This document shows positions 26,202 to 26,816 of a DNA stretch of 64,000 nucleotides, one piece after another. A program made the position numbers and the translations under genes. The DNA comes from an uncultured bacterium. Its GTDB lineage: Bacteria > Chlamydiota > Chlamydiia > Chlamydiales > CAZBXE01. The notes below the pieces were generated by a model. The model saw only the letters and a list, made by a program, of their open reading frames with translations, did not search any database and was not told where the DNA came from. The stretch is from positions 86,084 to 150,083 of the forward strand of contig CAZBXE010000005.1 in NCBI GenBank assembly GCA_964496125.1, written 5' to 3'. How positions within the stretch are numbered: the first letter of the stretch is position 1; each line of letters begins with the position of its first letter.

Positions 26202-26816
26202 TTGGCAATTGAAAGATATCATACCAGTTGCTCGATCTGCTGGGATAAAGCAGCATTAAGTTCTTATAGGCAGAACTACCATCTCTACAAAACTCGATGG
26301 AAAACAACGGATAATGGAGCTGTTGTGGGCAGAAATTGCCAGCACGTGTTTCATGAAGCCTGCATAGCCGGATGGTTAGCTCAGAATAACAGCTGTCCTC
26401 AGTGTCGTTTGCCTTTCCAAGGTTTTAATTGGTTCCCCTCAGTAGACCATCTTATCTCCTATATTCAGAGAATGTCTGCTAAAGTTCAAGAGATTTTCAC
26501 TCAGATCTTCTTAACTGAGGTTCGTCGTCCACCTACTGTTGTAACCCACTATCTTAGCCACAGGGACGAGGCAGACCCATTTCGTCACCTACGCCTTATT
26601 CTCGACGCAGAAACAAACACTCTCCTTCTCAGAGAGCCCACGCTATCAGAAGCACTCTCTGCTTTCGTAGGGATTGGACCAGCTAGCTTTATGATGGTGG
26701 TTCTTTATCTTGCTGAGCACCCCGAACTGATGTCCAACGTGGAAAAAGAGGAAATGAACCGGATCATCACAATCTACAACGAAAGACATCTCAAGCAAGT
26801 CCCTATGTTGGGCTAA
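26202..26816 (+). CDS. RING-H2 zinc-finger protein (eukaryotic-like E3 ubiquitin ligase domain)
   Basis: TTG start 6 nt after AGGAG. Residues 10-68 fit C-x2-C-x32-C-x-H-x2-H-x2-C-x10-C-x2-C, including the HVFHEACIAGWL....CPQCR core. The C-terminal 135 aa are unassignable. Confidence 0.8.
   Translation: MAIERYHTSCSICWDKAALSSYRQNYHLYKTRWKTTDNGAVVGRNCQHVFHEACIAGWLAQNNSCPQCRLPFQGFNWFPSVDHLISYIQRMSAKVQEIFTQIFLTEVRRPPTVVTHYLSHRDEADPFRHLRLILDAETNTLLLREPTLSEALSAFVGIGPASFMMVVLYLAEHPELMSNVEKEEMNRIITIYNERHLKQVPMLG

Follow-up and report, generated by a model that had tools for sequence, protein, structure and literature searches.

The subject of this study is a window of 64,000 nucleotides (nt) from a contig of an uncultured bacterium of the Chlamydiales (CAZBXE010000005.1) and, within it, a short gene which encodes a RING-H2 finger. 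The gene is located between a BON gene and the holB-tmk-gyrAB block, a placement already given in a first-pass annotation of the sequence and borne out here. The coordinates of all features are compiled in Table 1. The predicted protein starts with MAIERYHTS, i.e., nine residues precede the first zinc ligand. The ligand series is C10-x2-C13-x32-C46-x1-H48-x2-H51-x2-C54-x10-C65-x2-C68 (nt 26229-26405), and the core reads F50-H51-E-A-C54-I55-A-G-W58-L59-AQNNS-C65-P-Q-C68-R69. Open reading frame (ORF), ligands, spacings and the FHxxCIxxWL/CPxCR core are as initially annotated. A C3H2C3 regular expression matches exactly once in the six-frame translation of the window and not at all in 200 triplet-shuffled windows.

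Profile searches with the hidden Markov models (HMMs) of Pfam lead to the same assignment. The zf-RING_2 model (PF13639) scores 41.4 bits (E 1.8e-10; curated cut-off 27.3) and zf-C3HC4_2 41.6 bits (E 1.1e-10; cut-off 27). zf-rbx1 reaches 36.2 bits (cut-off 31) and covers residues 10-69 end to end with its model positions 3-55 of 55; zf-ANAPC11 reaches 27.8 bits (cut-off 25). The latter two are the sole Pfam models which span the whole domain including its long first loop. The first-pass annotation had considered that the spacing might be coincidental and that a bacterial zinc ribbon might be the better fit. There is no zinc-ribbon family among the Pfam matches of the protein, and no zinc-ribbon or Prok-RING family fits better.

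These scores bear on the question whether the protein might work inside the bacterium, as a prokaryotic RING which cooperates with a bacterial system for ubiquitin-like conjugation or for defence. Prok-RING families are represented in Pfam and bacterial ubiquitination-like defence systems exist (PMC12591485). Yet Prok-RING_4 (PF14447) remains far below threshold (11.8 bits; cut-off 27), among the flanking genes covered by the Pfam scan none has an E1-, E2- or JAB-like domain, and the sequences nearest to the protein belong to RING-H2 ligases of eukaryotes. An intrabacterial role is, in our estimate, very remote.

The best matches among solved structures (phmmer against the PDB) are RNF4, RNF126, gp78/AMFR, Arkadia/RNF165, HRD1, RNF38, EL5 and RBX2; the match to RNF126 has an E-value of 6e-7 over residues 44-77. 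All 287 library matches of an exhaustive HMMER search fall within the RING region, and those which bear a name are RING-H2 ligases of eukaryotes. Beyond a single relative, P0003, which is discussed below, the named proteins nearest to the domain are RING-H2 ligases of the plant ATL type and others from eukaryotes, whereby several of the high scores stem from multi-RING proteins.

An AlphaFold2 model calculated from the single sequence had a predicted local distance difference test (pLDDT) of only 45.6. A second model was built on a multiple sequence alignment of 49 RING matches. In this model residues 40-70 have pLDDT values of 85-94; two short strands (40-42, 49-51) precede a helix (52-61), as predicted for a RING fold. 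Nearly all of the top 50 Foldseek matches to the PDB are RING/U-box domains or RING-containing complexes. RBX2 ranks first, and RNF165, TRIM37, RNF38, gp78, HRD1, RNF12 and EL5 are also at the top (probabilities 0.9-1.0 overall and 0.96-1.0 for the first six named, target template-modelling score up to 0.82). HMMs, the solved-structure search, the model with its Foldseek matches and the nearest relatives all agree with the initial RING-H2 assignment. It is near certain that the domain is a eukaryote-type RING-H2 finger.

How a RING finger docks a ubiquitin-conjugating enzyme (E2), and how its linchpin arginine operates, has been set by the structures of c-Cbl-UbcH7, RNF4-UbcH5a~Ub, RNF38-UbcH5B~Ub and BIRC7. 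The window protein has I12 between its first two ligands, W58 on the helix, P66 between its last two ligands, and R69 directly after ligand 8. In the PDB phmmer alignments these residues coincide with the equivalent positions of RNF4, RNF126, RNF38 and gp78. We take I12, W58 and P66 to be the E2-docking surface and R69 to be the linchpin which holds E2~ubiquitin in the reactive closed state. Judged by its sequence the protein lacks none of the features of an active single-subunit RING E3.

Table 1. Features of the RING-H2 locus and of its surroundings (positions in the window).
Feature	Position	Strand	Evidence or remark
RING-H2 gene, ORF	26202..26816	+	204 amino acids (aa), 23.7 kDa, TTG start, TAA stop
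RING-H2 (C3H2C3) domain, residues 10-69	26229..26408	+	Pfam, PDB phmmer, AlphaFold2, Foldseek
Shine-Dalgarno sequence AGGAG	26191..26195	+	6 nt upstream of TTG start; read from sequence
AT-rich spacer, 187 nt, between the divergent BON (-) and RING (+) genes	26015..26201	.	ORF map; presumed promoter region
Insertion of 32 residues, first RING loop, residues 14-45	26241..26336	+	Alignment with P0003
Mostly helical orphan C-terminal region, residues 91-204	26472..26813	+	Public product P0001, 114 aa
Hydrophobic segment, residues 152-170, LSAFVGIGPASFMMVVLYL	26655..26711	+	Kyte-Doolittle
BON protein	25358-26014	-	ORF map, Pfam
holB, then tmk, gyrA, gyrB	26803-27795 (holB)	-	3' end overlaps 3' end of RING gene by 14 nt, convergent
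Pom-family porin (Protochlamydia outer-membrane protein, PF17251)	33827-34741	-	174.7 bits
CesT-family type III secretion chaperone	37662-38180	-	110 bits
DOT1-like methyltransferase, 227 aa	46239-46922	+	Best Pfam match DOT1, a eukaryotic histone methyltransferase, 34.2 bits (cut-off 23)
F-box + leucine-rich repeat (LRR) protein, 426 aa	57016-58296	+	F-box/F-box-like at residues 38-81, 35.8 and 30 bits, over cut-offs

The first RING loop is far longer than in typical RING-H2 ligases. Its insert contains no Cys and a single His, and it is modelled at low confidence as helical (pLDDT about 57-64). The motif K30-x-R32-W33-K34-T35-x-D37 ... G43-R44 within the loop is common to the window protein and P0003. 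The insert invites a comparison with the RING subunits of cullin-type ligases. The protein resembles Rbx1, Rbx2 and APC11 in its full-domain Pfam alignments over the cut-offs and in having RBX2 as its top Foldseek match. It differs from Rbx1/ROC1 because an insert with no Cys and one His makes a third zinc site impossible and because an N-terminal cullin-binding strand is missing.

One may ask, then, whether the RING merely binds host E2s or cullin-type scaffolds and has no substrate-directed ligase role, i.e., whether it sequesters or inhibits E2s, or acts as a meta-effector which ubiquitinates other bacterial effectors. A meta-effector E3 has a precedent in Legionella LubX, which acts on SidH (PMC12591485). 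Further, no substrate-binding fold is discernible in the C-terminal region, and it is the long loop which gives the best full-length HMM alignment to an Rbx1-type model. On the other side, the complete set of E2 contacts and the linchpin Arg argue for catalytic activation and not for passive E2 binding, and the differences from Rbx1 just listed speak against a cullin-type scaffold. We regard this explanation as unlikely.

P0003 is a protein of 154 residues, encoded at nt 139-603 of a Logan contig of 3097 nt from SRR31558115 (L001). It aligns from its own N-terminus over residues 3-75 of the window protein (E 1e-15, exhaustive HMMER search); tblastn gives 42% identity over residues 1-73. P0003 retains the eight ligands as well as the loop motif, and its gene begins with ATG at the equivalent N-terminus. 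The contig is bacterial-looking; genes for an amino-acid permease and a flavin reductase are located beside P0003. A tandem second copy follows at about 625-1069, broken by a frameshift and a stop; its RING N-half lies in one frame, its C-half and tail in a different one. The likely causes are a duplication with subsequent decay in that organism or errors of the assembly.

A word-indexed search with a profile of the query and P0003 returned P0003 only. Scans of metagenomes and viruses with the same profile yielded generic RING-H2 genes only, all without the loop motif. In scans of the species-representative genome collection neither the RING protein nor holB had a relative. According to tblastn there is no paralogue in the window; over the collected loci, which certainly comprised L001 and L002, matches were confined to the window and L001. 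As a tentative and rather doubtful proposal, the window protein, P0003 and its decayed tandem copy might form a very small family of RING-H2 ligases in bacteria which has so far escaped annotation, captured from a eukaryotic host long ago and hidden by mis-called starts, in which the loop insert K-x-RWKT-x-D ... GR-[ND]-C would be a new functional surface. If so, this surface would, e.g., select a particular host E2 or bind substrate, and a function of the loop would let the C-terminal halves of the members diverge completely. Separately, we observed a metagenomic protein of 348 aa (P0081, on a Logan contig of 3664 nt) with two RING-H2 fingers, the first loops of which are also long (CSICLD...x30...HPHFFHEACVRPWIEQHKSCPNCR); possibly this is a further multi-RING effector of bacterial origin.

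In the public record the RING domain does not appear. A single product (P0001, NCBI, 114 aa, on a contig of 158,635 nt) is identical to residues 91-204. The full sequence of 204 residues is absent from a collection of 15 billion proteins, in which a word-indexed search gave the truncated self-match only. The domain is missing from the protein databases because the public annotation begins at the ATG at 26472, i.e., Met91. Probably, the gene caller truncated the gene on account of the TTG start and a low composite coding score. The public holB product, too, is shorter than its ORF (325 vs 330 aa).

Is the annotated start perhaps the real one, and the RING stretch an untranslated relic of an old transfer? 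The extent of the public product, the rarer start codon and the codon statistics would fit. The composite score of 26202-26471 is -0.083, the best of all six frames, and below every native window of 90 codons (minimum 0.051). The low value is explained by a composition rich in Cys, His, Trp, Asn and Gln. Synonymous codon usage is native: 0.057 for the RING part and 0.055 for the C-terminal part, compared to a native range of 0.081 +/- 0.050. Contrary to what a relic should look like, the 90 codons upstream of Met91 are open without stop or frameshift, and none of the eight ligands or four E2-interface residues is lost. The TTG is preceded by an optimally spaced AGGAG, whereas the ATG has only AGAGA, which abuts the codon and is no usable Shine-Dalgarno sequence. 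The region is conserved as a protein in P0003, the gene of which has its ATG at the corresponding N-terminus, and the broken tandem copy of P0003 shows how a decaying copy would look. A relic is thus highly unlikely. The TTG start of the first-pass annotation gains support from the AGGAG and from the conservation of residues 3-75. A strict sigma-70 scan detected no site within the spacer 26015-26201; by eye, a weak promoter-like TTGTTG-N18-TATAAA can be discerned at 26146-26175, which conceivably serves the gene.

The C-terminal region has resisted classification, in line with the initial remark that the remaining 135 residues have no recognisable domain. Residues 70-204 have no Pfam or NCBIfam match, and the NCBIfam library contributed nothing useful. 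The exhaustive HMMER search of 1.84 billion representatives recovered no homologue of this stretch, and for residues 91-204 nothing but the sequence itself. In the alignment-based AlphaFold2 model the region is all-helical at low to moderate confidence, and Foldseek identified no PDB fold for it. The 19 residues 152-170 have a mean Kyte-Doolittle value of 1.9, the maximum of the protein, and are predicted as a helix (pLDDT 65-77). This segment may anchor the protein in a membrane or form the buried core helix of its C-terminal domain. With two library proteins the HMMER alignment passed beyond the RING. For P0061 a C-terminal homology was rejected, as the C-terminal parts alone gave no match at E<=100. 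For P0117 a full-length pair comparison shows weak similarity in this region.

The host is a chlamydia-like bacterium of a lone lineage. The named relatives of its holB are from metagenome-assembled genomes of Chlamydiales, Parachlamydiales or Parachlamydiaceae, with one exception labelled Verrucomicrobia (P0174), and the best non-self holB is merely 39% identical. The block gyrB-gyrA-tmk-holB recurs on the contigs which bear the closest available holB relatives. The CesT chaperone and the Pom porin mark the window as that of an environmental chlamydia with a type III system. The DOT1-like protein may be another eukaryote-like protein, directed at host chromatin. Together, the F-box + LRR gene and the DOT1-like gene point to a broader eukaryote-like toolkit, and this supports a host-directed role of the RING protein.

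Downstream of holB the related contigs differ. L002 has a Legionella_OMP-like gene and L004, at this position, a gene of equal size but no annotation; L003 has an unannotated convergent gene and L005 an S24 peptidase/umuC pair. A RING or BON gene is not present downstream of holB in L002-L005. The differing genes indicate a synteny breakpoint at this point and a lineage-specific RING gene. The guanine plus cytosine (GC) content of the gene is 45.2%, equal to its flanks, and 44.7% in the window. A recent horizontal transfer is rejected on the grounds of native GC and synonymous codon usage; a transfer from a eukaryote, if there was one, would be old and ameliorated. The domain with its 60 residues is too short for a reliable phylogeny of the donor. 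The gene had been viewed as an accessory insertion at first. This holds in so far as it is not found at the holB position in chlamydial relatives; a sign of recent insertion is not apparent from base composition and codon usage.

The same observations answer the suspicion that an assembly chimera or contaminating eukaryotic host DNA is at hand, for which only the eukaryote-like nature of the domain could be invoked. The ORF is free of introns and sits in a contiguous bacterial block, 187 nt from BON and overlapping holB by 14 nt. Its GC and synonymous codon usage are those of its neighbours, and its C-terminal part is annotated on the same NCBI contig of 158,635 nt. The probability of such an artefact is practically negligible.

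We propose, at a probability of roughly 0.65 and reasoning from sequence, that the protein is a secreted single-subunit RING E3 ubiquitin ligase effector which would rewrite the ubiquitination of host proteins or, alternatively, of co-injected bacterial proteins. It would consist of two parts, the N-terminal RING-H2 (residues 10-69) and a lineage-specific C-terminal region (70-204). The protein would be exported into the host cytosol, probably via the type III system, and the RING would fold round two zinc ions as a cross-brace. I12, W58 and P66 would dock a host E2~ubiquitin of the UbcH5/UBE2D type, and R69 would lock it in the closed, reactive conformation. The C-terminal region, possibly together with the loop insert, would pick the substrate or localise the ligase, and the hydrophobic helix 152-170 may place it on a membrane. 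The case for type III translocation is circumstantial: a CesT chaperone is encoded in the window, an N-terminal hydrophobic Sec-type leader is absent by inspection, and the biochemical partner is found in eukaryotes only.

Several points weigh against this proposal. The protein has no recognisable secretion signal, and the nine residues ahead of the first ligand would hardly suffice for the unstructured N-terminus of a classical type III signal. The long loop could interfere with E2 docking. The modelled RING fold is partly circular because the underlying alignment is composed of RING proteins, and the Foldseek E-values are weak (0.05-0.5) for a small domain within a query of 204 residues. Conservation is a single comparison, as P0003 is the one relative which the searches found. 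Lastly, the public annotation omits the RING part, and the composite codon score of this part is below the native windows.

How does the protein compare to known systems? With RNF126, gp78/AMFR, Arkadia/RNF165, RNF38 and plant ATL/EL5 it shares the ligand pattern, the core CxIC...FHxxCIxxWL...CPxCR, the E2 contacts and the linchpin Arg. It departs from these eukaryotic ligases in its bacterial, operon-like context, in a first loop of 32 instead of roughly 9-15 residues, in the lack of a eukaryotic partner domain and in its orphan C-terminus. Bacterial E3 effectors mostly belong to the HECT-like, NEL or zinc-free U-box types; LubX, GobX, RavN, NleG, AvrPtoB and StoD are zinc-free U-box or structurally cryptic RING-like folds. 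By contrast, the window protein is a predicted zinc-type RING-H2 of canonical sequence. To our knowledge, such fingers are rare in bacteria. The strategy predicted here, an E2-recruiting, adaptor-type E3 which is delivered to the host, is the one these effectors employ (PMC12591485).

In Chlamydiae, eukaryote-like F-box, BTB and RING/U-box (NEX1b) families have been described (Domman et al., PMC4209131), and the first chlamydial RING ligase, with atypical ligands, was characterised in 2025 (PMC12591485). The surprise which the first-pass annotation expressed about a RING-H2 in a bacterium is lowered accordingly; the domain itself stands. This ligase, SneRING (SNE_A12920) of Simkania negevensis, is UbcH5b-dependent and expressed in infection (Horner et al., PMC12591485), and it serves as the working model for the window protein. 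Its ligands are C17, C20, N32, C35, H40, C43, C54 and C57, i.e., NxxC replaces CxH, and its best structural match is TRIM37 (3LRQ) (PMC12591485). The likeness is considerable: a Chlamydia-like host, a size of about 25 kDa, a RING at the extreme N-terminus (14-72 in SneRING, 10-69 here) followed by an uninformative C-terminal domain, and TRIM37 (3LRQ) among the top Foldseek matches. Yet SneRING has short loops and two atypical ligands, whereas the window protein is a textbook C3H2C3 with a loop of 32 residues; where SneRING has a Ser at the hydrophobic E2 contact the window protein has Ile, plus the Trp, the Pro and the linchpin Arg. Compared by published description, the ligand set (C3HC4-like or atypical) and the short loops of the SneRING family, which includes relatives from Simkaniaceae/Chlamydiia, are not those of the window protein. 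As to a common C-terminal alpha/beta domain, the model of the window protein is all-helical in this part but of low confidence, residues 91-204 have no homologue among the 1.84 billion representatives, and a sequence link between the two C-terminal regions did not come to light.

NEX1b of Neochlamydia, an N-terminal RING/U-box with LRRs, is likewise chlamydial, likewise carries a eukaryotic ubiquitination domain at the N-terminus and is likewise read as a host-directed effector. It possesses LRRs and a conserved linker of about 50 aa, whereas residues 70-204 have neither LRR nor another Pfam domain. The F-box + LRR protein of the window is built like the ubiquitin-hijacking families which have expanded in Parachlamydiaceae (NEX1a type; PMC4209131). 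Unlike these expanded families the RING gene is single-copy in the window. RING/U-box proteins outside NEX1b were not reported in that survey (PMC4209131). As far as its sequence permits a classification, the protein would best be taken to represent a new family, a very small one, among the eukaryote-type RING E3 effectors known from intracellular bacteria. It is distinguished by the canonical C3H2C3 core with linchpin Arg, the conserved 32-residue loop, the orphan C-terminus and a RING which is absent from public protein databases.

The window protein would provide a clean case of 204 aa with every catalytic hallmark of a eukaryotic RING. Its small size should make it amenable to work with human or amoebal E2s, and it would inform how environmental chlamydiae rewire host ubiquitination beside F-box proteins. 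Further, a downstream ATG chosen by the gene caller hides the RING; proteome-based censuses of eukaryote-like domains in Chlamydiae can consequently undercount effectors.

A terminator-like hairpin is located at 26898-26915 (+), and with its run of eight T it occupies 26898-26925. It lies 80 nt past the stop of the RING gene, within holB on the opposite strand, and transcription of the RING gene could end there. Terminator-like sites in the window are no commoner than in shuffled sequences (3 found, 3.1 expected), and the hairpin is not claimed as a part of the gene.

Some further observations concern the remainder of the window. Two large ORFs have no Pfam match and native synonymous codon usage, one of 1621 aa at 20336-25201 (-), just beyond the BON gene as seen from the RING gene and also without NCBIfam match, and one of 1350 aa at 11331-15383 (+). 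Both may encode effectors or surface proteins peculiar to this chlamydial lineage. An ORF of 146 aa at 19216-19656 (+), within a gene-poor gap of 1.2 kb, has two adjacent hydrophobic stretches with a short RAGP turn between them (ILCLVTQIFCLF-RAGP-AYVLGFYLGFAAAIAYCV), an arrangement which recalls the bilobed hydrophobic domain in the inclusion-membrane (Inc) proteins of chlamydiae. At the start of the window dnaA (69-1379, +) is followed by a tRNA (1416-1490, +); this end of the window may be situated near the replication origin.

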